This document shows positions 24,560 through 52,623 of a stretch of DNA of 64,000 bases, in pieces. The position numbers were made by a program, and so were the translations under genes. Each line of letters begins with the position of its first letter. Positions within the stretch are counted from its first letter, which is position 1. This DNA comes from Sedimentisphaerales bacterium (GTDB taxonomy: Bacteria > Planctomycetota > Phycisphaerae > Sedimentisphaerales > Anaerobacaceae), in assembly GCA_963708075.1 (NCBI GenBank), contig OY970194.1:6464001-6528000 (forward strand), read 5' to 3'. Below the pieces are notes generated by a model that searched no databases, was not told the origin of the DNA, and worked only from the letters and a program-made list of their open reading frames with translations.

Positions 24560-24660
24560 CAGTGGGACAACGAACACGGTTACAGCGGGGACAGCTACCT
24601 ACTAACGGCTCGAATAACTGGGGATGGCCACGGATTGGTTAAGATGGAGAAGACAGCGAA

Positions 24661-25383: not shown

Positions 25384-25458
25384 AAATCAAGAGGGCGGGA
25401 ATTCCGGTGACACATTACTTTATTCGAGGCCACGATATGGGGCTCCAGAGCTTTACAT

Positions 25459-26264
25459 AGGAGATCGGTGGGCATAGCCCATCGTAGCGGCTCTGGCCGA
25501 AGCCGTGTCCCGCCCTTCATCAGCGTTTATCAGCGTTCATCGGCGGTTGCATTTCCTCTGCGTCCCAGCGTCTCAGCGCGAGACGATCAGTTATTGTCAG
25601 TTCTCATTTATCAGTTCCCAGTCTGAAATCGGTGTATATCTGCGGCGGAAGGAGGGTTGATGGTTGCTGGTTGATATCTGTTGTGGGTTTCTCCGTGGTC
25701 TGCGTGTCTCCGTGGTGAGGAAAGACAGTTCTCGGTTGGCGGTTCCCAGTTGAGAATCTGCGAAAATCGGCGAAATCTGCGGATGATGATCAGTAGTCGG
25801 TAGCCGGTAGTCGGTTGTCAGTTGAAAGACTGGATTCCTGCCATCGATCAGGTCGGGGGGGGACCTTTCGCAGGAATGACAGAGTCGGTATCGGCATCAG
25901 TCGGCGGTTCCGGGGCTCGGGCTTCGCGGTTGAGAGCCGTCAAATGAATCTGGATTCCCGATCGGGTCGGGAATGACATGCGAGGGGCCTTTTTCGCGTA
26001 GTTCGCGGTTGATGATCAGTGGGCAGTGGAACAGGGATCAGGGGGATTGTGCGAAACAAAGCCAATTGATGGGGGTCGGGACCTGTGGGACGAGGGACGG
26101 GGTGAGGTGGTTCCCGCGTCGCCCGCCCCTGCGGCCTTGCCCCGGCGTCCTGCGCGAAACAAAGCCAATTGATGGGGGTCGGGACCTGTGGGACGGGGAT
26201 CGGGGTCGTGCGAAACAAAGCCAATTGGTCCTGGCGGACAGGTGGTGTGCGGTGCACACCCTAC
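25459..26264. repeat. Mosaic repeat block left of the kinase, including three GCGAAACAAAGCCAATT repeats
   Basis: 25772-25929 is the reverse complement of 28712-28861; 25466-25540 matches 29030-29097 and 32800-32875 (inverted). GCGAAACAAAGCCAATT at 26051, 26154 and 26210. Confidence 0.85.
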
Positions 26265-26957
26265 GAGACTCCCCACCGTTGTTGTGTCGTGCAGGATCAT
26301 TCTCCCACATGAGGGGGGTATTTGCAAGTGTCGGGCCGGAGGCGCGATCAGCCTCCTGGCGGCTCGGGAGGGATGAGCCGATGATCTGTTGACCGCTCAG
26401 GCGGTCGAGACGATCGATCAGGCCCGTCAGATCCCGCAATACTACGAGAGCGAGGGGCGTGGTCGGCTTTCGGTGGCGGATCCGAGCCTCGGTGTAGGAC
26501 GGGCGTCCTCGCTCGTTCCCCTTTGTCGTGCGTCTTGGCACGGCGGTTTGAGCGATTGCCCGTACTCCCCAGGGGCGAACGGGGACGTTCGCCCTACGAA
26601 GAGCGGCGTGGACTGCCACCATATTCCGGCCGCTCAATGCCGGGGTGGACGGGGAGCCGGCGGGTCTCGTGGAGCCTTCCCATCTTTGGATGGCATTCGA
26701 ATCCGATAAGTGGCAGGTCCGAGAACCGAACGTGCCATGAGGCCGTACAAAACGCTAAACCGGTGCTGAGAATTGGTCGATGCCATGAGCAGTGGCGCTG
26801 TCTCAATGGTAAAATGAGCAAAAAAATCGTTTGACTTCGGAATTGATGAATCGATAATGACCACCCGGTGGTGCTATTATCGGGTGTGACTGCTGGAGCC
26901 GAGTGGCCCGGCCCGGCAGCGAAAGGATGCAGCTCGGGGTCCCCCCGGCGGTAATTC

Positions 26958-28187
26958 ATGACGACGGAAACCAGTTACGATTCTCTGTTTGGCAAGTTGG
27001 CGGTAGACCAGGGGCTCTGCACGGACGAGGAGCTTCGCCGCGCGATCAAGGAGCTCAAGGAGCGCCGCAAGGTCGATCCCCTGATGCTCCAGGATTTGAT
27101 GGTCGAGTTGGGGTACGTCACCACAAGCCAGGCGGAGCGACTCAAGACCAGTATCAAAGAGAGCAAGGTCGCCGCCCAGCAGATTCCCGGCTACAAAATC
27201 ATCGGCAAGGTCGGGGCCGGCGCCATGGCCGTCGTGTACAAGGCCAAGCAGATCAGCCTCAACCGCACCGTCGCGATCAAAGTCCTGCCCCGGCGATTCA
27301 GCGAGAACCCCGAGTACGTGCAGCGCTTCTACAAGGAAGGCCAGGCCGCCGGCAAGCTCAACCACCCGAACATCGTGCAAGCCATCGACGTTGGCGAAGC
27401 AGGCGGGTATCATTACTTCGTGATGGAATTCGTTCAGGGCAAGACCATCGCCGACGACATCAACACCGGCAGGGTCTTTCCCGAGCAGGAGGCCATCGAG
27501 ATCATCATCCAGGTCTGCCACGCGTTGCAGCACGCCCACGCGCACGGCCTGGTCCACCGCGACGTCAAGCCCAAGAACATCATGATCAATGAGCAGGGCG
27601 TCGTGAAGCTGGCCGACATGGGTCTGGCCCGCGAGACGACCGACATCGAGGCCGCCCAGAGCGAGGAGGGCAAGGCCTACGGCACGCCATACTACATCGC
27701 CCCCGAGCAGATCCGCGGCAAAATCGACATCGACGGCCGGGCCGACATCTACGGCCTCGGCGCCACCTTCTACAACATGGTCACCGGCCGCGTCCCCTTC
27801 ACAGGCGACGACTCCGCCGAGATCATGAAAAAGCACCTCAAGGAAAAGCTCGTCCCCCCCGACCACATCAACACCTCCCTCTCCGCTGGCGTCTCCGAAG
27901 TCATCGAGATCATGATGGCCAAGCACCGCGAGGACCGCTACAAAAACGTCGAGGAAGTCCTCCTGGACCTCGAAGCCCTCCGCGAGGGCCACGCCCCCCT
28001 CCAGGCCCACAAACGCTTCGACGTCTCCATGCTCGAACAACTGGAGCAGGGCGACGTGGTCGAGCCGGAAGAAGTCGGCGATGTCAACGAAGTGATCACT
28101 CGTTACCGCCTCACCGTCATCGTCCTCGCCGCCGTCACCGCGATCTCCGTCCTGGCCGTGATCGTGCTCTTAGCCCTCCGCCGCTGA
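26958..28187 (+). CDS. Hanks-type Ser/Thr protein kinase with C-terminal TM anchor
   Basis: GAGAMAVVY, VAIKVL, HPNIV, HRDVKPKN, DMGLA (DFG variant), GTPYYIAPE and DIYGLG. Confidence 0.95.
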   Translation: MTTETSYDSLFGKLAVDQGLCTDEELRRAIKELKERRKVDPLMLQDLMVELGYVTTSQAERLKTSIKESKVAAQQIPGYKIIGKVGAGAMAVVYKAKQISLNRTVAIKVLPRRFSENPEYVQRFYKEGQAAGKLNHPNIVQAIDVGEAGGYHYFVMEFVQGKTIADDINTGRVFPEQEAIEIIIQVCHALQHAHAHGLVHRDVKPKNIMINEQGVVKLADMGLARETTDIEAAQSEEGKAYGTPYYIAPEQIRGKIDIDGRADIYGLGATFYNMVTGRVPFTGDDSAEIMKKHLKEKLVPPDHINTSLSAGVSEVIEIMMAKHREDRYKNVEEVLLDLEALREGHAPLQAHKRFDVSMLEQLEQGDVVEPEEVGDVNEVITRYRLTVIVLAAVTAISVLAVIVLLALRR

Positions 28188-28282
28188 TCCCCACGTCGCC
28201 AAACCTGTACCGCGAAGGCTCATTCAACACGGATTGCACAGATTCACACGGATTTCCAACGAATAACCAGCAACTCCCTTCC

Positions 28283-29130
28283 AACCGCGAGTCACGCGAA
28301 AAAGGCCCCGTGCATGTCATTCCTGCGAAAGCAGGAATCCAGGTCTTTTCCGATCCAGCCGCAGAGAACACCGAGCCCCCGGAGAAGGGACGCGACCCGG
28401 GCTACCCCCGCAATCGTAAATCAGAAATCGTAAATCACAAATGCAGAGGCCCCCGACCCCTGTCCCACTGACAACTGCTCATCCCCGGTCCGGCAGGACA
28501 AATTGGCTTTGTTTCGCACGAGTACCCTCGCGCCCTTCGCTCCGCATTCCGCATTCCGCACTCCGCATTCCCAAAGCCACCCAACTCTCCCAGGATTGGC
28601 TTTGTTTTGCAGAATCCGCCCCCGCCCTCGACCCCGCCATGTCATTCCCGACCCCCGATCCAACGTCGTAGGGTGGGTTCTCAACCCACGCGTTCAATGC
28701 TTGCTTGCCGCCCGCGAAGCCCGAGCCCCGGCACCGCCGACTGATGCCGATACCCACTCTGTCATTCCTGCGAAAGGCCCCCCTCGACCTGATCGAGGGC
28801 AGGAATCCAGTCTTTCAACTGACAACCGACTACCGACTACTGATCATCATCCGCAGATTTCCGACCGAGAACTGCCAACTGCCCACTGACAACTACTTCG
28901 GCCACAGAGAAAACGAAACCGCAGACGCCGTCCTGAGCGGGGCCGAAGGATAAACGCCGATGAACGTGCATTTTGAACTGGGAACTGGCCACTGAGAACC
29001 GTCAACTGTTTATCAACCGCAGACAAACCCAGATGAACGCCGATGAAGGGCCGGCACATGGCCACGGCGAGAGCCGCTACGATGGGCTATGCCCACCAAT
29101 GCCTATCATAGACGTCCGCGGAATTCCCCC
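28283..29130. repeat. Mosaic repeat block right of the kinase (inverted relative to the left block)
   Basis: AATTGGCTTTGTTTCGCAC at ~28502 and a variant at ~28594; heptamer runs AATCGTA and TCCGCAT; a GTAG REP at 28668; the 150-bp inverted copy at 28712-28861. Confidence 0.85.
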
Positions 29131-29310
29131 ATAAGCTTTTACCTGACAACCATTAATCCTTATCTCGCAATGACTTACGGCTTCGCCATTCGAACTGAAG
29201 ATCTGTATGCGCCGGTTCAGGTATAATCAGCGTGATGACGATGACCGTGCTTTGAGGGCAGTACGTGAGCATGCCCAGGGATTGGGTTGCACGTTAGGAG
29301 ACGCGGAATC

Positions 29311-29676
29311 ATGGGAGCGACAATTCGACAACAACAAGGTGACGTGTACGTGATGCGGATTACGGGGTTGCTGAGAAAATCCGAGTTGGATGCTCTGCAG
29401 GCCTCGGCGGCCAAGATGCTGGACTACGATCCCCTGTTACGCGTCAGACTGTTGATTCTCCTGGAGACGTTCGAAGGATGGGAACGCAACCCCGACTGGG
29501 GCGACATGAGCTTCTACGCCGACTATGGCGACAAGATTACCAGGATTGCCATCGTTGGCGACCCAAAATGGCAAACGGAGTTCGAGATGTTCACAGGAGC
29601 AGGATTTCGCCCGGCGCCCGTCAGATTCTTCCCTTCGGACCAACTCCAACAGGCTCGCACATGGTTGGCTGAATAG
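29311..29676 (+). CDS. STAS/SEC14 (SpoIIAA-like) domain protein
   Basis: RBS AGGAG; ITGLL..LLI.LE.FEGW..ITRIAIVGDPKW..VRFF....QARTWL pattern. Confidence 0.85.
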   Translation: MGATIRQQQGDVYVMRITGLLRKSELDALQASAAKMLDYDPLLRVRLLILLETFEGWERNPDWGDMSFYADYGDKITRIAIVGDPKWQTEFEMFTGAGFRPAPVRFFPSDQLQQARTWLAE

Positions 29677-30021
29677 GTAGGCGGCGGGAATCCAGATTCC
29701 TTGAACCACGGAGGACACGGGGACCACAGAGAAAACGAAACCGCAGATGAACGCTGATATTCAAACCGCGAAATACACGAGCCGCAACACGTTCTGTACT
29801 CTGCGTCCCTGCGTCTCTGCGCGAGACCTAATTCTTGTGGTTTCAGTAGCTTACGTGTCACCCTCTCGAAGAATCTGCGCAAGAAAACAAGATCCCAACA
29901 AGTAGTAGTACGAAGACTTCACTGTTCTGATCCCCCCTTAAAGATTAGAATAGGAGCTGACCCTCGCCGTCCTCTTGAATATGATTGAACAGGTTAATGC
30001 GGCGACAGCAGGAGCAGGTCT

Positions 30022-30435
30022 ATGACAGTGAAGACATTCTTAGAGATCGAGCAAATGGAAGGTCACCACTACGATAAGGAGAATGCGGATTTCTCATCTC
30101 TTACCGCTTGGTATGATCGGGCACGAGAAAAGCAGTTCTCTGAGTTCTCTGTCGAGGATTGGTGCAAATGCGTGAGGCAGGAATTGTACCTTAAGTACCT
30201 GATTGAGTGGCCCATTGCCGAACTGAGGAAGGACCCACTCGCTGGCGAAATGTACGATGGAGAGTTGGCAAATGCCTTCACATCTGTGAGCCAGGAGTTT
30301 TGGGTGTGCCAGGAACAGGCGAAAGAAGAGGTCAAAGCGATCTTCCGCTCCGCATATGATCAATATCCAGATAATGTGCAGCGGAACATTGACGACGTGT
30401 TACGTAGATGGGGGCAACCGGGGGGCAACTCTTGA
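30022..30435 (+). CDS. Orphan CdiI-like (contact-dependent inhibition) immunity protein
   Basis: KQFSEFSVEDWCKCVRQELYLKYLI....ELRKDPLAGEMYDGELA resembles the CdiI_3-type pattern. RBS AGGAG. Lower GC. Confidence 0.65.
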   Translation: MTVKTFLEIEQMEGHHYDKENADFSSLTAWYDRAREKQFSEFSVEDWCKCVRQELYLKYLIEWPIAELRKDPLAGEMYDGELANAFTSVSQEFWVCQEQAKEEVKAIFRSAYDQYPDNVQRNIDDVLRRWGQPGGNS

Positions 30436-30485
30436 CACTTGACAGACAGGTCCGCCTGGCTTGCATCCGCTTTGTCAAGTGTCAA

Positions 30486-32298
30486 CGGGCTGTTGCCGGA
30501 ATAGGCTTGCTTTTCAGGAGTATGTGAGTATACTTTAGGAGTCCTGATGAATTGGTGGTAAGGAAGGGACTCCTTATGATGGGCAGACAGTCACAGCCGT
30601 CGGGCAAACTCTTCTACTACGATTTCTCTCTGGAGCAGCGGATTCCACAGGACCATCTGCTTCGCAAGATCCGGGCGATGGTGGATTTCGAGTTCACCTA
30701 CGGCTTGGTCCAGAGGCGCTACGGCGTCAAGGGCAACGTCTCGGTGCCGCCGCCGGTGATCCTCAAGCTGATGCTGCTGTTGTTCCTCTACGATGTGGCC
30801 TCGGAGCGGGAGTTGATGCGGACCCTGCCGTACCGTTTGGACTGGCTGTGGTTCCTGGGCTATGACCTCGATAGCGAGGTGCCCGACCATAGCGTGCTGA
30901 GCAAGGCCCGCCGCCGCTGGGGCAGCGAGGTGTTCGAGACGGCTTTCGCCAGGGGAGTCGCTCAGTGTGTCCAGGCCGGTCTGGTCAACGGACGCAAGAT
31001 ACACATGGATGGCAGCCTGGTGGACGCCAACGCCTCCAACAACTCCGTCTGCAAGGGCCCGGAACTCTGGATCGAGCGTCTGCGACAGGCGCTTCGAGGC
31101 GAGATGACGAAACTGCAGGAACCTGAACCTTCCCCGCCTAAGCCCGCCGCCGACGGCTCTATGGCCACGAGTGAAGCCTGTGCATCGGTCCCGAAGGCGA
31201 TTGCCTCGCCAGCTGCCGCGACTGCCACGGCGGCCTCCAACGAAGGGGAGGGCCCCTGCGGCCAGACGCCTGCTCCTGTGCCTGCCACCCAGTCGCCCCC
31301 GAGCGGGACCAAGAAGTACTATAAGCCCAAGAACCGCTCCATGGTCAGCACGAGCGATCCGGATGCCGCCATCGTTCGCAAAGGGCCCCATGGCCCCCGG
31401 GCGCGGTACAAGAATCATCGGGTGGTGGATGATCTGTGTGGCGTCATCACGGCGGTGGCCACCACGGCCGGGGATGTGGAAGAGAACGCCAAGTTGATGG
31501 ACCTGGCGGATCAGCACGAGCAGAACACCGGCTGCACGACAGAGACGGTGGTGGCCGACATGCAGTACGGCACGGTGGAGAACTTCCGGGCTTGTCGGCA
31601 GCGTGGGATCAACAGCCACATGGCGGACCTGACGTTGTCGCAGGCGAACAAACCCTGTATGCAGGGCATCTTCGGCATCGAGCAGTTTCTCTACGATTCC
31701 ACGAGCGACACCTACCGCTGTCCGGCAGGCCAGACGCTCACACGTCGCAAGCACAAGAAGCAGCGTCAGGCCTATGAATACGCCTGTGCCGCCGCGGTCT
31801 GCCAGGAGTGCTCGATGCGCCAGCAATGCACCCGCGCCAAGGGGACCGCCCGGACGATCAAGCGGCACTATGACCAGGACGCGATCGACGCCGCCCGGGC
31901 GCAATCGCACAGCCGGGCGGCCACACGCGACCGCCGGCGTCGTAAATGGCGGATGGAGGGCAGCTTCGGGGATGCGGCGACGCACCATGGGTTCAAGCGG
32001 GCCCGGTGGCGTCGGCTCTGGCGTCAGCGGATTCAGGATCTGCTGATTGCGACGGTGCAGAACTTGCGAACCCTTCTGCGCCATACGGGTCGGCGCACTC
32101 GTGGGGCCTGCTCGCAGGCTCCAGGCCACAGCGCCCCGGCCCCACACACGCTCGGGACCATTCTGGACACGCCGGCAGGACTTCTCCGGACCTTCCTGAA
32201 GCCTCTACAGTCGATTCATCGCCGCGGAGCGACCCCTGTGCCTTCCGGCCCCTGCTACCCATGACCGCTCCCTCACGGCTGCTTCCGGCAACAGCCCG
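30486..32298 (+). mobile_element. Complete IS1182-family insertion sequence (1813 bp)
   Basis: 16-bp terminal IRs CGGGCTGTTGCCGGAA (30486-30501) / TTCCGGCAACAGCCCG (32283-32298); 4-bp target duplication TCAA at 30482-30485 and 32299-32302. Confidence 0.92.
30576..32264 (+). CDS. IS1182-family DDE transposase
   Basis: IPQDHLLRKI, SERELM, PDHSVLSKARRR, MDGSLVDANAS, STSDPDA, VADMQYG, YRCPAGQ and MEGSFG..K.AR.R. Confidence 0.93.
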   Translation: MMGRQSQPSGKLFYYDFSLEQRIPQDHLLRKIRAMVDFEFTYGLVQRRYGVKGNVSVPPPVILKLMLLLFLYDVASERELMRTLPYRLDWLWFLGYDLDSEVPDHSVLSKARRRWGSEVFETAFARGVAQCVQAGLVNGRKIHMDGSLVDANASNNSVCKGPELWIERLRQALRGEMTKLQEPEPSPPKPAADGSMATSEACASVPKAIASPAAATATAASNEGEGPCGQTPAPVPATQSPPSGTKKYYKPKNRSMVSTSDPDAAIVRKGPHGPRARYKNHRVVDDLCGVITAVATTAGDVEENAKLMDLADQHEQNTGCTTETVVADMQYGTVENFRACRQRGINSHMADLTLSQANKPCMQGIFGIEQFLYDSTSDTYRCPAGQTLTRRKHKKQRQAYEYACAAAVCQECSMRQQCTRAKGTARTIKRHYDQDAIDAARAQSHSRAATRDRRRRKWRMEGSFGDAATHHGFKRARWRRLWRQRIQDLLIATVQNLRTLLRHTGRRTRGACSQAPGHSAPAPHTLGTILDTPAGLLRTFLKPLQSIHRRGATPVPSGPCYP

Positions 32299-40119: not shown

Positions 40120-43100
40120 CTACTCAGCGCCCTGTTCACGGTATAGTGAGTCGAGAGACTTCAGTGGCTCCACTGTCTCCGACAGTCTTGGGGATACATC
40201 GTTGGGGTCGCGTATCAAGCTCGCCGTGACGAAGACCACGAGTACTCGTTTGGAGTTGTCCTCGTTCTTGAAGCCTATATGCGGCCCGAGCCACGAGAAG
40301 AAATCTGTTATGGAAGCACGCTGCGCGCTTGCCTCTGATCTGATCACGTCCGTCATTGCCAAGGCTACAGTACCGCCATCGTGGACCAGAATCCTATTGC
40401 TCGGTCGATCCAGTCTTACGGTCGGATGGTTGGCACCTCGAACGAGTGGCGTACCGCGCGTGACGCCATAGGCAAGCTCAAGGCTGACCTCGTTTTTGTC
40501 GCCGACAGACGGAATCACCAACACGTCAAAGGACCCGTCTTTGTCTACCAGGCCCACAGGATTGGTGCTACAGGTGGTCCAGGTGATGACTGGGAACTTC
40601 GATTCGTCGCCTTCTCTCCCCCTTATTTGCGGGTCCGCTACCATATCCAGCCGATTAGCCTGCTCAAGTCGGTCCAACTCTGCCATGAGTAGATCCGAGG
40701 GCACTCGGTCCGATAGACGACCTGCCCGCAGGTTGAGATCCAAGAGAATGTCGTCTTGGCGAATGTGATCTCTACTTCCGGGAGTCCATTCGATGCCGAG
40801 GTTCTGCAGATCGCGGGGTTCCATCGCGACGATGCGCGTGTCCAGCAGGACGAGGCGCTTGCGTGTGTCGTCTGTCTGTGGACTGCCGGATGCGCTCGAA
40901 TCACTCTGTGTTTTTGATTCGGGGGATGTCTTCTGTCGAGTGACTTCGTAATGGTCCGCCTTTTTCTTGACGACGTAGGGCGTGCCCGCCGTGACCATGC
41001 GGAGGGCGGTCTCCAGGGGCACGGCGTTCAACTCAACATCGATTTCTCCCGTGACATCTTCATCGACAGCAATGGATACTTCCGCGGCTGCCGCGAGATC
41101 CATCAACGCCAGTTGACGACTGACGCCACTGAATAAATTGCTGATCGGGCGGTAGACGAGATAGGTGCCTTGCGGCCAGGGGGATGTATTCGACTCTTCC
41201 TCGAAAGTACGCCGGCCCCTCGAAGCGACGAGATAGTAGTCTGGCGTCTTCCTGATGACGTAGGGTTTGCCGGCCAGGACCATCTCCAGAGCCGTCTCCA
41301 GCGAGACATCCTTCATGTCCGCATATACCGATCCGGTCACCGTCTCGTCGGTGATGATCGGCACGCCGGCCATGGTGGCAACATCCTGAAGGACCAGGCG
41401 CAACTGGTCGCCCTGCCATACGTTGGTGATCCGAGGCCGTTCCTGTCGGGCAATTGTGCTCTCCCCGATCTTCTTGAACACGTACGGCGTGCCTGCCAGA
41501 ATCCGGCGAAGCGACTCCTCGACGGAAACGCCGGCGAGTTCGGCCGTAATAGCCTGGGGCTTGACCGTCTCATCAACCGCAATCCTCACCCCCCCGCGTC
41601 TGGATATCTCCGCCAGCACTTCTCGCAGGTCCACGTTGGCGAATGTTGCGGTGATCGGGTCGCCAAAGATGCGGGTAGTGACTTCCCCGGATGATTCTCT
41701 GAATCCTCCCATTCCGCCCATCCCGGGGGCGATCTCATTCGCACCGGTGTCGTCGATAGGGCCCTCCAGGATGGTCGGCATCGCCATGATGTATACGGAC
41801 TCCTCGTCCTTGCCCGGCGCCGGCATATTCCACTCGGTCGTCCCGGCAAGAGTGATGCACTGGCCGCTATATACGGTGGCGGCTGCCTGAACGATTCTCC
41901 GCCGCACAACCGGCACGTCCGCGCCGGCGGAAGGCCGAAGGACGTCGGTCGTCCCGACCACGATCTCCAGGGTGACAGCATTGTGGTCACCAATGTGCGG
42001 GGTCAGGTCTATTTTGACCCCGGCCTCGATTCTCTCCAGCTTCCCGGGCTCTGAGGAGCCGTCGGCAGGCGGTGCGGCACGAATGTACTCGTCATGACCG
42101 ATTCTAACCTGGCACTCCGTTCCGTCTCGTGCCACGACCCGCGGGCTGGACAGGACCTCCACGTCCTTAAACAACGGAAGGAGGGCGTCCATCGTCTCGC
42201 CCGGCAGTGATTCCTGGACGACATGATCGCGGAGGACCTCGCCGACGGTCAGGTGAAAGCGAGGCCCGAACTCGCCGGCTCGTCCCTCAGGCCGGACCCG
42301 CTTGCCGAGGATCTCCTCTATCTTCAGCACGGTCTCGCGGTCCAGCTCGCTGCTGTCGACCGCCTTGACGACCTTGATGCCCACTTGAACATAGGCCTTG
42401 TCTGCCTCTGCGTCATTGGGGTCAGACGCGGACAGTTCAGCGACCTCGGCGGGTGCTGTTATCCCAGGCCCGTTGATCGTCGGCCGTACGAGCAGGATGT
42501 GCAGACGCTTACCGGCGGTTCTCGTCCTCCTGCTGCGGCGTGCCCCTCACGAAGACTGCTGAGTATTCATTGTTTCGAGCAATGAGCATCCATGCCATTT
42601 TTGTCGCAATCATTCGTTCGTTGGGGTCGGCGGGGTCGTCGACCAGATGGGTGAGAGCCAGTTTCGCATCAATCACTACCGCGTTCGGATCGTTCGGTAG
42701 AGAGACTGTGGTTTCCAGTCTCATGGAGCCGAGTCCATCCTCTTCCGAGGCTGCTTGAGGCACAGGAGCATTCGCGTCTTGTGCCTCGCCGATCATGATA
42801 GCCCCGGGTTGCCCCGGGAGCAGCAGAATTGTCGGATTGCTCACTATGCGAGCGTAACCGCGGGACACGAGGAGGTCCACGAATTCCTTGTCCTTGTCGC
42901 GTGCGAGCATGACCCCGGAGAGGGCATCCGCCAGAGGCCGCTGGAGTTGCTCAAGGCTTGGCTGGGGCAGGGGCCCGATGACGCGGCCGGAATTTCCTGC
43001 CGGCCTGCGCAACAGCAGGGTTCTCGCTTCCGCCGCCGTCTGCGGGTCGAGCGTACGGTCGGCGGAAACCTCGACGAGAGTGTAGCTGACCATGACCGGT

Positions 43101-44275
43101 GTGCGTGCCGGATCATTCGGCTCTACTTCGGCCTGCACAGCATCCGCCAACGCAGCGAGATCGTCGGCCGCGGGACCAGGCGGACGGGCATCTGCCCTCG
43201 CCAGGGCGAGAGCCGCAGGGATTGCGACGCCGGCGACGAGCAGCAGGGTGATCAGGCCGGGCAGCCAGGCGAAGCGTCTGTCATCGGCTGTGGGTCGGCC
43301 GAGCAGGCGGGCGATGCGGTCAAGCAGGCTGCCGCCGGTGGCGGCGATGGCCAGCTCGGCCTGGCTGTGGCGGATTTCCTCCAGGCAGGTCAGCGCCCGG
43401 GCATATCGCACGGAGTCGCCGCAGACGCACACGGCCATGTCGTCACAGCAGTTCTCCCGCTCGATGCGAATGCGGTGAGAGACCCACCAGACGGCCGGAT
43501 GGTAAAAGCCGAGGATCTCCACGACCGTCTGCAGCACGTTCACGAGGTAGTCGTATCGGCGGATGTGCGCCAGCTCGTGGGCGAGAATTGCCTCCAGTTG
43601 CTCGGGGCTCAGGCCGGTCAAGGCGCTGGCGGGCAGCAGGATCACCGGGCGCAGCCAGCCGACGACCGTCGGGACCTCGACGAGGGCCGACTCAAGCAAT
43701 GTCACGGCCCGGTGAACGCCGAGCCGGCCGGCGATCTGCGCGAGTCGCCGCTGCAACGCATCGCCAACTCGGTGGACCATGCGGCGTTTCAGCCGCTGCA
43801 ATTGCATCCACCCGCCGAGATGCCACGCGGACAGGCCGAACACGCCGACCAGCCAGCCCAGCACGGCATACGGCAGGGCGGGTTCAAGCGCCGACGTGAT
43901 TCGCTCGTTCCAGGGGACGGGAATAGCCACGTCCACAATTTCCAGCGGCACATCAGAGAGCGTGAATGGCTCATCGGGCATCTGGGCGACGGTCGCAGGC
44001 GCTGCAGTGGTCACTAATGGCTCGGGCTCAGGGCCCGCCTCCGCGGCAGGCCCCCGAACCTCGATAAACTGCATCGTTGCGATGGGCAGCACGACCATCA
44101 GTGTCAGGGCTGCACAGGCGGTCAGGTATCGCACGTTTGCGCTGCTTCTTCGCAGCAGCCGCAGGAAGCCCGCCAGGAGCATTGCCACGACCGTCGCTTG
44201 CCAAAGGAAATGCACCAGCATCCAGCCCAGCCGCTCCACCGTCGCTTGGGAAAGCAGGTTCTCCAGCCACAACAT
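40120..44275 (-). CDS. BlaR1-type M56 peptidase fused to secretin-like and STN domains (apparent +1 frameshift at ~42519)
   Basis: HFLWQ, PVILLP, HELAHIRRYD and ERENCCD in ORF 42509..44275. Removing one A reads ETAGKRLHILLVRPT..DPNDAE..VQVGIKVV into ORF 40120..42384, which has three STN-like repeats and secretin-like segments (GVKIDLTPHI, LQNLGIEW, LVVFVTASLI). Confidence 0.82.
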
Positions 44276-44658
44276 TATTGTCCCTCCAAATCATCGAGCA
44301 TTTGTCGGATTCGCTTCAATTCCTTCGGCGAGACCTTCTTGGCGGACAGGGCTCGCAGGACGAGCTTCTCCGCCGAGCCGGCAAAGACCCGGTCGAGCAG
44401 GTCGCCGATCAGTTGCTTCTGCGTGCGTTCCTCCGAGACAGTCGGTCGGTAGATGTGCTTGTGTCCGCCGGTCTCGCGCACCAGCAGGCCCTTGTCCACC
44501 ATGATCTGCATCAGTTTCAGCGTCGTGGTGTAGCCTGTCTCTTCCTCCTGCTTCAGGGCTTCGTGCACGTCCCGGACGGTGCTGGGACCCTTGTCCCACA
44601 GCACGCCCAGGATCGCCAGCTCCCGATCCGTCGGACCCGATGTCTTCTTTCGCGCCAT
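44275..44658 (-). CDS. BlaI/MecI/CopY family transcriptional repressor
   Basis: PTDRELAILGVLWDKGPSTVRDV..YTTTLKLMQIM.DKGL..FAGSAEKLV; translationally coupled to the M56 gene. Confidence 0.93.
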   Translation of the reverse strand: MARKKTSGPTDRELAILGVLWDKGPSTVRDVHEALKQEEETGYTTTLKLMQIMVDKGLLVRETGGHKHIYRPTVSEERTQKQLIGDLLDRVFAGSAEKLVLRALSAKKVSPKELKRIRQMLDDLEGQ

Positions 44659-44702
44659 GACTTTTCTCCTTAATCTCTCCCCGCCTTTTCCATATCGGCA
44701 GG

Positions 44703-44743
44703 TTACGAATGAATTCGTAATAAATCAACGAAAAAATTCGTAG
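44703..44743. promoter_or_regulatory. Tandem palindromic operators, probably bound by BlaI #1
   Basis: TTACGAA-TGAA-TTCGTAA (44703-44720) and AACGAA-AAAA-TTCGTA (44727-44742), 45-85 nt upstream of the repressor. Confidence 0.7.
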
Positions 44744-44984
44744 TAGCATAAAAATTTCTCGCGGGCAAGGGAAGAACTTCTGACGGGAGAGCCGGCAAGT
44801 ACCACTGGAATGTCATTCCCGTGCAGGCGGGAATCCAGGAACCTGTCGAATGGTCCTCGCTTGGCGAGTCGGGTGACAATCCTGCTCATACTGTTGCAGG
44901 CTCTTGCCGGGAAGAGAGCCTTCGCGATGCACTGCGAGGGCCTCTGCTTCAGTGGGTCTCTCCTGCCTGGCGGGCATTTGCGAA

Positions 44985-47501
44985 TCAGAGGTCTTCTCTC
45001 TCCTCCGTCACAAACCAGACCTCCGCCGGCTGCTTCTCGACTCTGAATTGAAGGCCGGTCTGTCTTGCGAGGTTGTTCAGCAGCGCGGGCAGGTACGTCT
45101 CCTTGTCGATGACTCGTTCCGGGTAGGTGTCCATGAGAGCATCGCAAGACAGGTACCGGATCTTCCCGGTCGGTACCGGATCGGTTCTGTCGTCGATGGC
45201 GATGTTGATACCGTCCGCAAGTTGACGAAGCAGGTCAGCCAGAGAATCCGCTTCGCCTGTGTCCCCGTCCTCGGACAGAGGTGTGTCTCTGGTGATGCGC
45301 AGACAGAACTGATTCGGATCCTCGTCAGGCAAGGGCGTTGGAGTGTAGCGACCCGTCACGACGATGGTGTCTCGCTCGACCGTGCGTTTCTCAAAGCGGA
45401 TCGACCGGCATATCTCTGTGCGGAGGATCTCCTCCAGGGCCCGGAGTTTCTCTTCGACGGAACACCCGTCGCGGATGATCCAGTCGCCCTTCGGAAAAGG
45501 CACACCCCGGAGCTCGTTGGGGACGACGAAATCGTAGTCGGGGATGCCTAGCACCCAGTTCAAAACGCTTCGGGCTCTGGGCAGATTCACGCCCCCGTAC
45601 CAGGCGCCTCGCTTGAGTTGACCGTCCCAGCGAAACCCGCCGCAGATGTACCAGGCATCGACGAGAAGCACGTTGAGCCCACCCTGGCCAAGGCACATGT
45701 CGACCATATAGTCCTGATGCTCGGGCATGAAGGGCGGCTTGACAAGTTTCACCACTTCGCCTTCATCAAGGCGGTATGTCTTGTCGAAGGGTTTCCGCCA
45801 CTCCGTGCGTTGTGGCCAGTCATCGGCGATTGGCCTGACCGGGTCCTGCGGCTCCAGTACCGCCGTGCCCACGTCGATTGTATCCTTGCCTGTCTCCGAC
45901 GCGGCCAACGGGACAGTCTTCATCACGTAGTCGGGGGCGAGAAATCGCAGTCGATACGCATGGTCACGTGGCAGCGCACTAAGCCTGAACTTACCTTCGC
46001 CATTTGCATACCCCGCGGAGATGGGGGTCTGAGGTTGGGGCGGGTCGTCGAGGAATACAATGACGAGAGACTGGGGGATCGGTTGACCGTTGGAATCGAG
46101 CAGGCGCCCCTGAAGTGTGAGACCAGGCTCGAGCCTGACTACGGCAAGGGACGCGGGATCTTGGACTTCCACCATGGCGGCCAAATTCTTATGTCTTTCC
46201 TGCACGACGAGGCAAGCGTTGGTTCCTTCAGCCACCCACGTCGGCGACCAGGGCACTTCGAAGTACCCCTGCCCGTTCGGCTCAACTGCATAACAGGTCA
46301 TGGGCAGGGCGGTCACGTGCACGGGACTGTGACTGAGAGGGTCATTATTCGGGTCCAGCACCTGGCCTCGTATCGTGACGCCCAAGGCGAGCTGCTCGAC
46401 GCACGCGCCGTGGCCGATAGTGCTCTTGACGAATTCCATCGCCTGCACAAACCTCGTCTGAGCGAAGGCGAGGCCGACGGTGATGCAGGCGGTCAGGCCA
46501 ATGGTAGCAAGCGTCCAACGTGGGCCGCTGCAGGGGTTGCTGCATTCGTCCCGGACGATGCGGCGGATGCGGCCGGCGAGTCGCGTCCTGGTGGTCACCA
46601 CGGCGGGGATCAATGCCGCCTGGCCCAGAGCGGTCAGACCCAATAGCGTGCGTGCATAACGCGTGCCCACCTGGCCGGAGGCGATCACCCAATCGTCGCA
46701 GACCTCTTCGCTCAGGTCCGCCAGCCGCCAGCGAACCAGCCAGGAGAATGGCTGCCAGGGCAGCAGGCAGATCATCAGCTCGGCAAGCAGCGCGCTGACG
46801 TGATCGTGCCGCTTCCAATGGGCCAGTTCATGACACAGGACGCTCGACCAATCGAGGCGTGCGTCGCCGCGGGAGCCGCTCGGCACGAGCAGAACCGGCC
46901 GTCGGCCCCAGCACCAGATGACCGGGCTGCGCGCGTGGCCGCTGGCACGCACGATCACATTGTCTTGGACTCCCAGCTTGGCCTTTGCACTGTCGAGGGC
47001 CTCCACGATTGGAGCGCTCTGTGCCGGCGCAGAGCGTCTGACGAGACTCAGACCCAGGAGCAGCCGAGCCAGTAATCGCAGCAGCAGAGTCGAGGTTGCC
47101 CCGAGCCACAGCAGTGGCAGGGCGGTTTGCCACTGGAACCTGGGCGTCACAGGTGCAACCGTCCTTGACAGCGTCACGCCAGCGCCGGCTGGCTCAGCGG
47201 CCGTGTCGCTCACCGGGGCTGGAGCGGTCGTTGCAGGGTCAGTCTCTACGAAGAACGGCTGAGCTTCGCGGATGGAGATTGTTCGCTCCGCCACGAACAG
47301 TCCCCATTGATTCTGTCGCACCGCGTGGCTCAGTGCGGGGATCAGGATCGCCGCGAGCAGCGACAGCAGCAGCAGTTGATGCGCGCGGACCGGCCGGCGC
47401 CGCAAGAGAATACTGCCTGCAAGTCCCGCCGCCAGGCAAGCTGTGCTCTGCCAGGCCAGCGGCCAGAGCCACGGATGTTGTGTGAAGACTTCGCTGATCA
47501 T
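44985..47501 (-). CDS. BlaR1-type M56 peptidase with carboxypeptidase-regulatory-like C-terminal domains
   Basis: HELAHWKRHD, SEEVCDDWV, YARTLL; then IRGQVLDPN and LQGRLLDSNGQPI beta-sandwich starts. Confidence 0.85.
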   Translation of the reverse strand: MISEVFTQHPWLWPLAWQSTACLAAGLAGSILLRRRPVRAHQLLLLSLLAAILIPALSHAVRQNQWGLFVAERTISIREAQPFFVETDPATTAPAPVSDTAAEPAGAGVTLSRTVAPVTPRFQWQTALPLLWLGATSTLLLRLLARLLLGLSLVRRSAPAQSAPIVEALDSAKAKLGVQDNVIVRASGHARSPVIWCWGRRPVLLVPSGSRGDARLDWSSVLCHELAHWKRHDHVSALLAELMICLLPWQPFSWLVRWRLADLSEEVCDDWVIASGQVGTRYARTLLGLTALGQAALIPAVVTTRTRLAGRIRRIVRDECSNPCSGPRWTLATIGLTACITVGLAFAQTRFVQAMEFVKSTIGHGACVEQLALGVTIRGQVLDPNNDPLSHSPVHVTALPMTCYAVEPNGQGYFEVPWSPTWVAEGTNACLVVQERHKNLAAMVEVQDPASLAVVRLEPGLTLQGRLLDSNGQPIPQSLVIVFLDDPPQPQTPISAGYANGEGKFRLSALPRDHAYRLRFLAPDYVMKTVPLAASETGKDTIDVGTAVLEPQDPVRPIADDWPQRTEWRKPFDKTYRLDEGEVVKLVKPPFMPEHQDYMVDMCLGQGGLNVLLVDAWYICGGFRWDGQLKRGAWYGGVNLPRARSVLNWVLGIPDYDFVVPNELRGVPFPKGDWIIRDGCSVEEKLRALEEILRTEICRSIRFEKRTVERDTIVVTGRYTPTPLPDEDPNQFCLRITRDTPLSEDGDTGEADSLADLLRQLADGINIAIDDRTDPVPTGKIRYLSCDALMDTYPERVIDKETYLPALLNNLARQTGLQFRVEKQPAEVWFVTEEREDL

Positions 47502-47902
47502 TGTTTGCCCTCCTCTTTTGTTTCCCGCTCTTTCTGTTCGATCAGGTGTTTCAATTCGCCGAGTTCGTCGGCGCTCAAATTGCCCTCGCGGATCAGATGC
47601 TGGAACAAGGCGATCGCGTTGCCGGCGAAGATGCTATTGAGGAACTGCCGGACCGAGCCGGCGCCGGCCTGGTCGCGCGTCTGTGTGGGCAGGTACACGT
47701 AGCTCTTGCCCTCGGCCCGATGCCGGAGCCAGCCGGCCTTTTCCAGCTTCTGCATAGCCGAGAGAACCGTCGTATAGGCAAGCTGTTTCTTCTGGGCGAG
47801 CCGATCCCGGACTTGGTGCACGTTGGCCTCGCCCAGTTTCCACACGGCTTCCAGAACTGCCCGCTGAAGCTCCCCCAGATCGTCCAATGGTTTGCGTGTC
47901 AT
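47498..47902 (-). CDS. BlaI/MecI/CopY family transcriptional repressor
   Basis: LGELQRAVLEAVWKLGEANVHQV..LAYTTVLSAMQKLEKAGW..GKSYVY; 4-bp overlap with the M56 gene. Confidence 0.93.
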   Translation of the reverse strand: MTRKPLDDLGELQRAVLEAVWKLGEANVHQVRDRLAQKKQLAYTTVLSAMQKLEKAGWLRHRAEGKSYVYLPTQTRDQAGAGSVRQFLNSIFAGNAIALFQHLIREGNLSADELGELKHLIEQKERETKEEGKQ

Positions 47903-47955
47903 AGGCTTATCTCCATGCGAAGAAGGACACCAACCGTTGCTACTCCAGTACACAG

Positions 47956-47972
47956 TACTACGCATCGTAGTA
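47956..47972. promoter_or_regulatory. Palindromic operator, probably bound by BlaI #2
   Basis: TACTACG-CAT-CGTAGTA, ~55 nt upstream of the repressor. Confidence 0.65.
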
Positions 47973-48153
47973 GATTGCAAGCGAAAAATGTGAAAATAGG
48001 CAAGAATTTCTATGGAACGCATGGGGCGGTAGCACCATGCCGTGTGAGAATAAAGAAACGAGCCCGGCATCGCGTGATTGCCAGGCCCGTCGTAAGTCTT
48101 GGAGCTTGTAGGGGCGGGTTTCAAACCCGCCCGTACGGACGCCCGATGCGTCT

Positions 48154-50190
48154 TTACTCTTCCTCTTCCTCCTTCTTCTTGCCGTACTGGGCGACGATCT
48201 GCTGCTGGACGTTCGGGGGTACAGGCTCGTAGTGGCTGAGGGTCATGGTGTAGCTGCCCCGGCCGCCGGTGACGCTTTTGAGCTGGCTGGTGTACTGGGC
48301 CACTTCGGCCAGAGGGACCTGGGCTTTGACGATGATGTAGTTGCCCGGCAGCATGTCCTGCCCGACGACGCGGCCTCGCTTGGAGGACAGGTCGCCGGCG
48401 ATATCGCCCACGTTTTCAGCGGGGATCGTGATTTCGATGTTGACGATGGGCTCGAGCAGGACCGGCTTGGCCTTTTTCACCGCGTCGATGAATGCGCCCT
48501 TGCCCGCTGTGCGAAAGGCCACTTCCTTCGAGTCTACGGGGTGATACTTGCCGTCGGTGACGGAAACCTTAACGTCCTGCATCGGGAAGCCCGCGATGGG
48601 GCCGCTCTGCATGACGTCATTGACGCCCTTGAAAACGGCCGGCTCGTACTGGCCCGGGATCGTGCCGCCGTAAATGTCCCAACTGAACTGCAGCGGCGGG
48701 TCGCTGCCGCGATCGGCGGGTTCGACATTCAAGTACACCTCGCCGAATTGGCCGGCGCCGCCGGTCTGCTTCTTGTGACGATAGTGCCCTTCGGCCTTGC
48801 CCGTGATCGTTTCTTTGTACGGGATCTTGGGCTCCTTTGTGTTCACGGACAGCTTGAAGCGGTTCTGCATCTTCTCGATCATGACGCGAAGGTGCAGATC
48901 ACCGAGCCCCTGGGCCACCAGCTCCTTGGTCTGCATGTCGCGGGTGGTCCGGAAGCACGGGTCTTCCTCGCGCAGCCGGTCCAAGGCGCCACCGATTTTC
49001 TGCTCGTCGCCGCGGGAGGCCGGCTCCATGGCCAGGGCGAACATCGGCTCCGGGAACGCGGGCATATCGAACTTGCCCGACACCCGGCCGTCCGAGACGA
49101 GGTCTGCGATTCTCAGCTCCTCGACCTTGGCGAGCGTGACGATATCGCCCGCGACGCCAGTGTCGATTTCTTTGATCTCGCCACCCTGGGATTTGAGGAT
49201 ATGCCCCGGCCGCACGCCCTTCTTCTCGTCGTTGCGAATGAGGTTCGTATCGGACTTGAGCGTGCCGCTGAAAACGCGGATGCTCGAGTATTTCATGTTG
49301 GATCGCGGATCGAACGCCACGCGGAAGACGATTCCCGCCAGCGGCCCGGCAGGATCGGGTTTCAACTCGGATGCGTTCTCGTCGCCGACCAGCTTCACCG
49401 GCCCGGCCTGGAGCGGGGAAGGCGTGTACTTCGTGATGAAGTCCAGCAGCTCTTTCACGCCCATCTCATGCTTGGCGTCGGTGAAAACGATGGGCACGAG
49501 CGTTCCCGCAGCGAGGGCTTTGACGAACCCGGAGGCAATCTGCCCGGCGGGGATCTCTTCGCCGCCAAGGTATCGCTCCATCAGGGCGTCGTCCGCCTCG
49601 ATGACGCTCTCGATCAGTTGCGTATGAGCCTCGGCCACGTCCATCACAGGGGAGCTACCGCTGCTGTTGACGATGCAGTCGATGACGGAACTCTTGTCCG
49701 CCGAGAGCAGATTGGCACAGCGGCACTGCGAGCCGAAGGTCTCCTGAATCATGTGAATCAGCTCGGGCAGCTCGAGGTTCTCGGCATCGACCTTGTTGAT
49801 AACGATCACGCGGGGCTTCTTCTGCTCCCCGGCGAGCTGGAACATCTTTCGGGTATTGGTCTCGATGCCGGCGGCGGCCCCGATAACGATGATCGCCGTC
49901 TCGGCGGCCGGGATCGCCGCAATCGCCGGACCGACGAAATCGGGGTATCCCGGCGCATCGATAATATTGATCAGTTTGCCGTCGTACTGGGCGAACATGA
50001 CCGACGCCAGGATGGAGTGCTGATGCTCCTTTTCCTCGTCGTAGTAGTCGCTGACGGTGCTCTTCTCGTCAACGCTTCCCAGCCGGTTGATCGCCCCGGT
50101 GAGGTGCAGGATCGCCTCGGCCAGCGAGGTCTTGCCGCTGCCGCCATGTCCTAACAGAACCACGTTCCGAATGTCGCCCGTTGCCGTCAC
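48154..50190 (-). CDS. Elongation factor G paralog (EF-G2-like)
   Basis: GHGGSGKT, DAPG, NKVD, EDP, GLGDLHL, HKKQTGGAGQFGEV, DGKYHPVDS and LLEPI. The RGITI motif is replaced by HQHSI and the gene is outside the str operon. GTG start with GGAGG. Confidence 0.93.
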   Translation of the reverse strand: MTATGDIRNVVLLGHGGSGKTSLAEAILHLTGAINRLGSVDEKSTVSDYYDEEKEHQHSILASVMFAQYDGKLINIIDAPGYPDFVGPAIAAIPAAETAIIVIGAAAGIETNTRKMFQLAGEQKKPRVIVINKVDAENLELPELIHMIQETFGSQCRCANLLSADKSSVIDCIVNSSGSSPVMDVAEAHTQLIESVIEADDALMERYLGGEEIPAGQIASGFVKALAAGTLVPIVFTDAKHEMGVKELLDFITKYTPSPLQAGPVKLVGDENASELKPDPAGPLAGIVFRVAFDPRSNMKYSSIRVFSGTLKSDTNLIRNDEKKGVRPGHILKSQGGEIKEIDTGVAGDIVTLAKVEELRIADLVSDGRVSGKFDMPAFPEPMFALAMEPASRGDEQKIGGALDRLREEDPCFRTTRDMQTKELVAQGLGDLHLRVMIEKMQNRFKLSVNTKEPKIPYKETITGKAEGHYRHKKQTGGAGQFGEVYLNVEPADRGSDPPLQFSWDIYGGTIPGQYEPAVFKGVNDVMQSGPIAGFPMQDVKVSVTDGKYHPVDSKEVAFRTAGKGAFIDAVKKAKPVLLEPIVNIEITIPAENVGDIAGDLSSKRGRVVGQDMLPGNYIIVKAQVPLAEVAQYTSQLKSVTGGRGSYTMTLSHYEPVPPNVQQQIVAQYGKKKEEEEE

Positions 50191-50290
50191 TTTTTGACCT
50201 CCAACGACGTTTCCAGAATTACACTTACCTTTGAAAACTGCCAATACTACTACGTTTCCAGGGGATACTCAAGGGCCTTTTTCTGCGAAT

Positions 50291-51092
50291 AATTGGCTTT
50301 GTTTCGCACAACGGCGCCTGCCTGTAGGGGCGGGTTTGAAACCCGCCCGTAAAGCCAAGGCGTTCTTCCGGAGAGTGTGAAGTGTGAAGTTTGAAGTGTG
50401 AAGCTGGGTAGTTCCATGGCTGGCCCCTCCTGCCTGACGCCTGCAACTTCAAACTTGCAACTCCCGACAAATTGGCTTTGTTTCGCACAACCCATTCTCC
50501 ATCCGCCTGCGGGCTCTCGGAATTGGCTTTGTTTCGAATGGCCGGGGCTACGTCATTCAGTAGCATAGGCTGCGCCCACCGCTCGTCCGGCAGGACCAAT
50601 TGGCTTTGTTTCGCACGACCGATCCTCCTGCGAGCCGGCATGCTCTCGAAATTGGCTTTGTTTCACACAGTCCGTCGTCTGACTCCCTGCTGCCTGTCTC
50701 CCGGCAATTGGCTTTGTTTCGCACGGTCGGGCACACGGAAACCTGCACGTCTCGTAGGCGGCTGTGCCCACCGGCGGCCCCATCGCCGCAGAATTGGCTT
50801 TGTTTTCGCAGACGCGCCCTCACCATCTTGCTCCCATAACCTTTTCCCAGAACAGGACTTAGCGCCTATCCCGCCCTCCACGAATTGGCTTTGTTTCGTA
50901 CGGCATGGCCTTCGCTTGACACTTCACACTTCCAACTTGAAACCTCTTTCCGATTGGCTTTGTTCCACACACCTGCATACGCCTGTCATCACACAGCCCG
51001 GCTACGCATCCTCCCGTCTTTCAATCCGCAGTCCGCAATCAACAATCCGCAATCTCCAGGGCTCCCAGCCCCGCGATTGGCTTTGTTTCACA
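50291..51092 (-). repeat. Array of 10 direct repeats (A/G)ATTGGCTTTGTT(T/C)(C/T) with variable spacers
   Basis: Copies start at 50291, 50470, 50521, 50598, 50650, 50706, 50792, 50883, 50952 and 51075. Confidence 0.9.
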
Positions 51093-51416
51093 GAATCGAT
51101 CCTTCCGCCAAGCCTGTTTCTTCTCCGCCGGTAGAATCCGCCGGAACTCGGGGGAACCTGCCGACGGGGCGTCGGCAAGCGAGTTTTTCGCATTGAGGCC
51201 ACCCGCATGATAGATCGCACGCACCGCTGGTCACCTGTGCCCTGGAAAAGGACGCCAGCCCGAACCATGCTGGAGGCCATGAAGCGGCAAACTCCCATCG
51301 CGAAGCGACGGAACCAACAGTCCCGTCTCACGAACATAGGACACAAGCCATCCGCCGGACCTTGCGGGGAACAAGTTCGGCTCGCTTGTCACAACTCGCT
51401 ATTCAATTATTCAGGA

Positions 51417-51445
51417 ATTGTACAAACGACCATATTTTCTGTCAA
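51417..51445 (-). promoter_or_regulatory. Near-consensus sigma70 promoter facing the repeat array and EF-G paralog
   Basis: TTGACA-17-TACAAT on the minus strand (51445..51417). Confidence 0.75.
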
Positions 51446-51954
51446 GCGAAATCCGGAAGAATGCCGAGAAGTTTCCCGGCCGGAACCGAGATCGACGTCC
51501 CGGAAGAAACCTGTAGCCCAGCCGCCCTCGGCTGGGGGACTCCTCTTGCCCTTCCGGCCTGTCCGAAGAGGGTGAAAAGTGGCCCGGGCCCGCTCGTAGG
51601 GTGGGTCCTTGACCCACGCGGTTGTCTTCCCGGAATTCTCGCTTGTCCGCTTGACGTGCGCGACCGGACAAGCTACAATTGCGGGTGGCATTTGGAGAGA
51701 ATCGCGTGGTGGCAGTACAGGAGACGGACAATCTTAGGGACTCGCCCGGTGCGGACGCGGCAGTGGTCGGTTCACGCGTGGCGGGGGGGGGGGAATGACA
51801 TCCACAAGCAGCCTGAAGTTGTTGGATCCCCCGCGCGAGGCGCTGCGGTCACGTTATGGTCGCCGGCGTGTAGTATCAGGACGACAGAAGAAATAGGTAT
51901 GACGTCCCCCGAATTCGGACATCATGTGTTGCATCTAAATTCTGAGCTGATTAC

Positions 51955-52623
51955 ATGAGCAAGTGTAAAGGAATAAATCGAAAAGGAAAAGGCTGTGGAA
52001 GTGATCGCATGCCTGGGTCTGAATACTGCGAGGCGCATCAGGACCAAGCGCCAAAGCGCGGAAGGACAGATAACCACAACACTATACAAGAAGAAAAGGC
52101 ACAGGTTCCGACCAAAGTCGGCAGAGTATCGCGTGTTATAAAGTTAGCATGTAGTCTAATTGGCCTCTTATCTGTCCTACTCAATTTCTGGCTAGGTTAT
52201 TATTTCATATTACCTAGGGTAACAGCGTCCATAGAAATGCCCAGCAACAGTAATTTCCCATTTGAATCGCACATAAGTATTGCGAATAACGGCAACTTTG
52301 CAATCACGAATGTTGTCTGCTCCTTGGAGGACAGCAAATTGAGTGCAAGTGTTAGTACTCCCCTTACAATGTATACACATGACCGCGAGGGCAAATTGGC
52401 TGGCAAGCGGGTTGTGCGATTTCCTGAGATAAAGGCAGGACATTCTGAACCATTGGAGCTTGCAAAGATGTTAGGCCTTGTAGGGAGTAGAGCTGACTCC
52501 GCATCCTTTTCACTGAAGATCAGTTATAAGCCTGCGTTTCTGTCTATAAAGACTCAGGTCTTTAGATTCAAGCTCTTCAAGACCGTAGATGGAAATTATA
52601 ATTGGCTTGAGTCAACAATCTAG
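51955..52623 (+). CDS. Low-GC hypothetical membrane protein with an N-terminal CCCH zinc-finger-like motif
   Basis: CKGINRKGKGC...GSEYCEAH, one TM helix and a beta-rich C-terminus; markedly AT-rich; bracketed by GACGTCCCCCGAATTC and GGGGTCAACTCTTGAC. Confidence 0.75.
   Translation: MSKCKGINRKGKGCGSDRMPGSEYCEAHQDQAPKRGRTDNHNTIQEEKAQVPTKVGRVSRVIKLACSLIGLLSVLLNFWLGYYFILPRVTASIEMPSNSNFPFESHISIANNGNFAITNVVCSLEDSKLSASVSTPLTMYTHDREGKLAGKRVVRFPEIKAGHSEPLELAKMLGLVGSRADSASFSLKISYKPAFLSIKTQVFRFKLFKTVDGNYNWLESTI

Follow-up and report, generated by a model that had tools for sequence, protein, structure and literature searches.

The array upstream of the EF-G paralog

The window, i.e., the whole 64,000-nt stretch of DNA that was analyzed, contains an array of ten copies of a short repeat beside an EF-G paralog. 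The copies (50291-51088) all share one orientation, with start-to-start periods of 179, 51, 77, 52, 56, 86, 91, 69, and 123 nt. Two smaller clusters lie at 26054-26226 (3 copies) and 28501-28607 (2 copies). A first-pass annotation had described the array, its periods, and both clusters, and this description was borne out: there were 15 repeat matches in the whole window compared to 0.34 expected by chance. The features are as follows.

50291..51088, minus strand: array A42 of 43 in the genome, with 10 direct repeats (GTGCGAAACAAAGCCAAT, on the element's strand) and 9 modular spacers
50792..50896, minus strand: conserved 91-bp unit (repeat, ~22 nt, A/T-tract pseudo-palindrome, ~30 nt, repeat)
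50836..50861, no strand assigned: pseudo-palindrome within the 91-bp unit; candidate IHF-type bending site
50319..50357, no strand assigned: REP-like hairpin captured in the first spacer of the window array; also common outside arrays
51391..51472, minus strand: left end of the element, carrying the element's promoter (TTGACA 51445, TACAAT 51417); shows homology to what lies upstream of intact congener genes and to left ends in other arrays
51089..51390, minus strand: stretch from promoter to array, the gene's place in intact copies; gene remnant not detected
50244..50272, minus strand: native promoter of the EF-G paralog, TTGAGT-17-TAGTAT, outside the element; recognized by eye and by conservation in congeners, below the threshold of the scan
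48154..50190, minus strand: EF-G paralog, the neighbor at the insertion site
26054..26226, plus strand: short array A40, 3 repeats of the same family; left end not detected
28501..28607, minus strand: short array A41, 2 repeats of the same family; left end not detected

The minus-strand promoter TTGACA-17-TACAAT is present at 51445-51417, as the annotation had noted, and 11 of its 12 letters agree with the consensus. It had been placed upstream of the EF-G paralog but does not serve that gene: it belongs to the element, and the EF-G paralog has a conserved promoter of its own at 50272-50244. The 91-bp unit has the same layout as an 89-92 bp two-repeat unit found behind intact genes elsewhere. 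Its pseudo-palindrome (50836..50861) is a candidate IHF-type bending site, by comparison with the IHF consensus. The first spacer, which holds the REP-like hairpin, has 87 matches outside arrays.

Contigs from public sequencing runs agree with parts of the array, showing that it is not an assembly artefact. A match to 50490-50896 came from run X1, which may be the source sample, and one to 50186-50312 from run X3 of another study, both with 0 differences. Joints between repeats were also seen in such contigs, but their sides were shorter than 30 nt or came from other arrays, and they were left out of the evidence.

Several neighboring features were recorded in passing. Two tandem BlaI/BlaR1-type pairs (penicillinase repressor and M56 peptidase; 42509-48124) lie directly downstream of the EF-G paralog. 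At 51594-51851, a divergent promoter (51651-51679, plus strand) sits inside a hairpin and is followed by a non-coding stretch that has no Rfam match and differs from a run X2 contig by 28 differences and 5 gaps in ~258 nt. At 51955-52623 is a low-GC ORF of 222 aa without a Pfam match. The two short arrays are surrounded (21599-32264) by an MmeI-type restriction-modification gene, a kinase, a CdiI-like immunity gene, and a DUF772/DDE transposase.

A repeat family tied to a small gene

Scanning the genome for the repeat, a check that the annotation had proposed, yielded 218 exact copies of a 13-nt core in 7.5 Mb and 43 arrays of 2-13 repeats, each in a single orientation and mostly intergenic; one mixed cluster, judged spurious, is left out of this count. 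The repeat (15-19 bp) has a conserved core of about 17-18 nt and is non-palindromic, and its periods range from 32 to 375 nt across arrays. The 252 spacers form 141 clusters, and 176 of them match a spacer of another array. The spacers of the window array had been called unique, which did not hold: seven of the nine partly match spacers of other arrays and three belong to full-length module classes. Module classes come back in different orders, with tandem duplication of one- and two-unit blocks. Many modules contain REP-like hairpins or heptamer runs that are also present outside arrays, and 110 of the 252 spacers have matches there. The search of spacers against phage and plasmid collections, likewise proposed by the annotation, gave no match. 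Neither helical phasing of the periods (p = 0.055) nor a replichore bias of the arrays (17 leading, 25 lagging; p = 0.28) was significant. The genome also carries three IHF/HU genes and 13 Y1 genes; a helper role of the latter for the arrays is possible. Indirect evidence places the host among the planctomycetes: one homolog at 96% identity bears the label Planctomycetaceae, and most of the nearest Atlas cluster is Planctomycetota.

Translation of the sequence upstream of the arrays revealed a small unannotated protein of ~185 aa that begins ANRRNAAKSTGPRT and carries the motif STGPxTxEGK...NAxKHG. All nine genomic copies of the gene (55-82% identity to the query copy; one frameshifted) are immediately followed by an array, always in the same polarity. 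An intact element comprises, in order, a pseudo-palindrome, promoter, heptamer run, Shine-Dalgarno sequence, the ~185-aa helical gene, and a variable tail that runs through at least one repeat copy. A frameshifted gene-bearing element at G000:C1:4778158-4780454 has its array split by a ~1.3 kb insertion (arrays A30 and A31).

Gene-less arrays retain the 5' end of the element (palindrome, promoter, heptamer run, and Shine-Dalgarno sequence), and several also keep the first codons of the gene. A left end was detected at E < 0.01 in 32 of the 43 arrays, i.e., in 9 gene-bearing arrays, 13 gene-less ones found with profiles from the gene-bearing copies, 7 type-II training arrays, and 3 further type-II matches. 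The type-I profile also matched weakly at ~35 non-array places, over its heptamer/Shine-Dalgarno part. A leave-one-out profile built from seven other arrays recovered 51391-51472 of the window at E = 1.4e-6, and all three of its non-training matches at E < 0.01 adjoin arrays. In congeners, this profile also matched the sequence preceding intact genes (best 2e-8). We detected no gene remnant in the ~300-nt stretch between promoter and array of the window. Since the window promoter coincides with the left end of the gene-bearing element, the window array appears to be a gene-deleted copy; judged by this homology, the promoter is that of the lost gene.

The link between gene and repeat extends well beyond this genome. 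In other genomes, the repeat motif stands behind the gene at 25 of 28 loci (two of the misses are cut by contig ends), and it does so in 51 of 59 scorable metagenome loci (79 in all, 20 too short to score), compared with 6 in a reversed control and 4 of 56 upstream. In Alphaproteobacteria, the class to which a Roseovarius genome belongs, 13 of 21 loci have the motif behind the gene, six of them on the opposite strand; these loci are not independent, and half come from one genome. As a peptide, the motif occurs in 194 of 220 homolog tails (0.5 after shuffling). In ~18 of the 79 metagenome loci, two direct copies are spaced 89-92 bp apart, usually on either side of an A/T pseudo-palindrome; the palindrome profile from our own genome scored at least 4 bits on 5 of 17 such units compared with 1 of 340 shuffles. 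Lossy searches recovered the gene from 16 of 18 congeners, 10 of 201 genomes across the phylum, and 9 of 301 genomes of Roseovarius's class. A scan of genome contigs gave 3 weak loci only.

Distant single-copy homologs lacking the STGP motif occur in family f41 (L054-L062) of the same phylum. The site AACATAA-N6-TTATCRGAC lies close behind the gene in 9 of 9 loci, and the 5 genomes tested each hold a single exact copy. The conserved sequence resembles a dif site, and these homologs are possibly a domesticated branch at the terminus. In our genome, a weak dif-like candidate at G000:C1:1494133, near the GC-skew terminus (1.46 Mb), does not adjoin an element.

Insertion, spread, and the encoded protein

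We compared insertion sites across the genus. A search of relatives, which the annotation had also recommended, detected the motif in 24 of 24 genus genomes at 4-656 copies (control 0). The window element was inserted just upstream of the native EF-G promoter, with its last repeat abutting the promoter region. No array motif was observed upstream of the EF-G paralog in any of 23 congeners, 19 of which have at least 1 kb of upstream sequence and 4 of which have 145-901 nt. Two further array sites are empty in 21 of 22 and 19 of 19 congeners, with a single degenerate copy in one congener. Syntenic elements in two species pairs share their flanks and differ in cargo. At the EF-G junction, a CCAA(A)TT-like run is present in a few congeners and is only suggestive as a junction signature. 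An exact search of metagenome contigs for a conspecific strain gave 0 matches, and no carriage by plasmids or phages was found beyond 3 weak plasmid matches.

The protein matched no family in Pfam, NCBIfam, or PHROG, yet its relatives fall into 23,420 clusters at 50% identity. Its predicted structure is all-helical with a long hairpin (pLDDT 87). Foldseek searches of PDB and BFVD returned no match at E <= 0.001, the best VIA match reached Z 8.8, the fold searches as a whole gave only generic hairpins and barely probed the N-terminus, and no solved relative was found by sequence. The N-terminal ~50 residues align with phage small terminases (hhalign probability 97.8 over 49 columns), within residues 11-64 only. 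This N-terminal motif was detected in phage proteins whose genes immediately precede a large terminase (3 of 3 tested) and in proteins matching PHROG small-terminase profiles (3 of 3 tested); among 36 family members, there were no PHROG terminase matches. A four-copy model scored 0.76 (best of 3 controls, 0.00) against a mark that 20 of 30 solved pairs and 1 of 23 single chains reached in a calibration on two copies and other alignments. Its runs share at least 60% of contacts, pLDDT is 73 or higher, and every subunit makes contact through two distinct faces, the pattern of an arc or ring. The protein is modeled as a side-by-side oligomer. No catalytic signature stands out in it, and no conserved or catalytic partner was found among 71 neighbors.

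Taken together, we lean towards interpreting the window array as a copy of a dispersed mobile element, non-autonomous and with its gene deleted; the repeats would be the protein's binding sites, and their pairing would drive shuffling and spread. On comparative grounds, we consider it highly likely that family identity, the gene-repeat link, deletion derivatives, lineage-specific insertion, repeat-plus-spacer shuffling, and DNA-level constraint on the repeats (see below) hold. We are evenly divided as to whether the protein oligomerizes through its helical hairpin and binds the repeats by its small-terminase-like N-terminus. The annotation had suggested a protein-binding or recombination array that gathers modules; the modules are indeed shuffled and recurring, whereas binding and recombination are predicted.

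In the proposed mechanism, the oligomer would bind the repeats through its small-terminase-like N-terminus and two sites would meet through a bend of the IHF/HU type in the ~90-bp unit. Lambda cosB has an IHF site between two of three TerS sites (PMC4856287) and P1 pac lies inside pacA, with repeats and an IHF site (PMC10028697). Paired repeats may promote duplication, exchange, and insertion of units, with cutting or joining activity supplied in trans, much as T4 gp16 and pac promote amplifications; pac-dependent amplification has been described at the 3' end of gene 16 in T4 (PMC10893049). Intact copies would serve gene-less copies such as that of the window in trans, and the REP-like hairpins and heptamer runs would be passengers.

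A wider interpretation is put forward tentatively. This huge unannotated family may constitute a small-terminase-derived, transposase-free mobile element whose oligomer recognizes repeats in its own 3' end, then follows one of two routes: synapsis of the repeats, which shuffles and spreads cassettes, or delivery of chromosomal DNA to the packaging motor of a visiting phage, making dozens of loci transduction start points; one branch would have been domesticated beside a dif-like site. A large family of "hypothetical proteins" is tied to a specific DNA motif and a mobile lifestyle, and a single protein with a single oligonucleotide would suffice to test the tie directly. If the mechanism is true, the element spreads with no recognizable transposase or integrase, and a terminase-type module has found a new role outside phages. 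The element also accounts for cas-less repeat arrays of one class in planctomycete genomes and for the spurious ORFs there that encode NKAN, TKPI, and KQSQ peptides.

Alternative explanations and known systems

We weighed four alternatives. In the first, a stand-alone small terminase with pac-like repeats redirects the large terminase of an infecting phage to the chromosome; transduction then spreads the element with its flanks, and cut ends recombining at other repeats produce the mosaics. This agrees with the N-terminal homology, the modeled side-by-side oligomer, the two-site unit with its central palindrome, and the lack of common sequence past the last repeat of gene-less arrays (0 sharing pairs among 33). 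Sites inside the gene are also known from P1, T4, and P22 (PMC9611059). We nevertheless regard it as unlikely: no large terminase was found among the 71 neighbors or, with four profiles, in the genome, the homology ends near residue 64, and the motif is rare at phage terminase-type loci (2 of 30; control 0). Moreover, packaging alone leaves insertion at new loci with a defined left end unexplained.

The second alternative is a host-adopted DNA-organizing or regulatory system, in which protein on the repeats bridges or bends the chromosome or tunes adjacent promoters and copy gains are secondary. Arrays at the loci examined stop ~20-30 bp upstream of the neighbor's promoter, palindrome units are under-dispersed, with 20 in 19 arrays (p 0.005-0.03), and family f41 pairs a single-copy homolog with a single-copy dif-like site. 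All three would suit such a role, but inheritance of one unit per founder element also gives under-dispersion. The range from 4 to 656 copies within one genus, the lack of array sites common to different species, and the sparse occurrence of the gene across the phylum render this explanation improbable.

In the third, the repeats encode peptide motifs in a disordered tail, and the gene-less arrays are dead pseudogenes. In eight intact copies the array does lie within the ORF, with 1 in-frame stop compared to 36 and 53 off-frame in 1470 codons, and in other genomes 19 of 23 ORFs continue past the last repeat; this test left out 7 of 30 loci (two of our own, one without the motif, two cut short, one second copy, and one near-end). 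The open frame through the array disfavors a pure DNA-site model. The annotation had named repeats kept in one frame inside a conserved protein as evidence against its reading; the location inside the ORF holds, but the single frame does not. In 220 tails (36 of 256 proteins were dropped, as the anchor was missing), the motif appears in two reading frames with nearly equal frequency, 181 compared to 173, and 14 times in the third. Of 91 forward motif copies in metagenome loci, 28 lie after the stop, and some copies in distant loci and congeners are inverted or on the opposite strand. Arrays with stops in all frames, the window array among them (3, 6, and 5), still have near-identical repeats. 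Across gene-less arrays, repeats are 97.6% identical to the consensus compared with 59-65% identity between homologous spacers, though the former figure is biased because repeats were picked at no more than 2 mismatches. The use of two frames in intact copies indicates constraint on the DNA, and together with the copies after the stop or on the opposite strand it argues against a simple decayed peptide repeat. These frame and strand data point away from the third explanation, to which we give little credence, and support the annotation's view that constraint on the repeat acts on nucleic acid.

The fourth, a CRISPR-like processed RNA array transcribed from the 51445 promoter, would explain why a strong promoter is directed into the array with fixed polarity relative to it, but is hardly credible given a promoter that belongs to a lost gene, a short non-palindromic repeat with variable periods, spacers that are recurring host modules, and an Rfam search with no credible match (a single chance-level one, E 0.76).

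The annotation had also judged that the array is not CRISPR, and we concur. CRISPR repeats are about 23-50 nt long with near-constant spacers, compared with the core of about 17-18 nt and periods of 32-375 nt here; spacers recur between arrays and lack phage or plasmid matches, and no Cas1 was found in the genome (92.8% complete).

The gene-deleted mobile element that we favor departs in a defining property from each of NIME arrays, Ssn/NTS, CRISPR, MITEs, and REP/BIME mosaics. MITEs are non-autonomous internal-deletion derivatives of a gene-bearing element, and the gene-less arrays are likewise internal-deletion derivatives that keep the left end of their parent. Unlike MITEs, they showed no terminal inverted repeats or target duplication on inspection of the end alignment of nine gene-bearing copies, and the gene matches no transposase family. 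REP/BIME mosaics, built on a palindromic REP unit with REP-like hairpins and an IHF-like site, are served by RAYT. The arrays are also mosaics that hold REP-like hairpins and an IHF-like site, but their constant unit is not REP, and the hairpins are spacer cargo that also occurs outside arrays.

Neisseria NIME arrays are intergenic, combine dRS3 repeats with RS elements such that a constant short repeat alternates with recurring ~50-150 bp spacer families, vary between genomes, and gather other repeats; a site-specific recombinase has been proposed (PMC1797815). A constant repeat alternates with recurring spacer families here too. The consensus is unrelated to dRS3, described there as a 20-bp inverted repeat (ATTCCC-N8-GGGAAT), and is non-palindromic and polar. 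The arrays trace back to the 3' end of one particular gene that has a promoter of its own, and they are not syntenic between species. Ssn nucleases are GIY-YIG nucleases linked to hairpin NTS/SRM repeats (PMC11893778). Both systems tie a small gene to its own repeat, with very different repeat copy numbers between related species. The protein here has no GIY-YIG or other nuclease domain (no Pfam/NCBIfam match, all-helical model), the repeat is not a hairpin, and the array lies in the 3' end and tail of the gene.

Small terminases with their packaging sites (lambda cosB, P1 pac, T4 gp16 pac) may resemble the element in several respects: the N-terminal ~50 residues align with those of one group, a helical hairpin and an oligomer are predicted for the protein here, and there are repeated sites in or near the gene and a palindrome between two sites, with T4 as a precedent for site-dependent amplification. 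The element differs in being chromosomal, dispersed, and multicopy, with no large terminase, portal, or other phage gene nearby. The homology covers residues 11-64 only, and the shared module may differ from the lambda winged helix. Our literature search, mostly of papers outside subscription, returned no description of this element; it is real, widespread, and apparently undescribed.

Two other arrangements were observed among the gene's homologs. In many congeners (L027, L029, L031-L033, L035, L044, and L046-L048), the gene is followed by an inverted and then a direct repeat copy that enclose variable REP-like cargo. At L038 (G024), a homolog is flanked on either side by ~60-nt direct repeats, like attL/attR.
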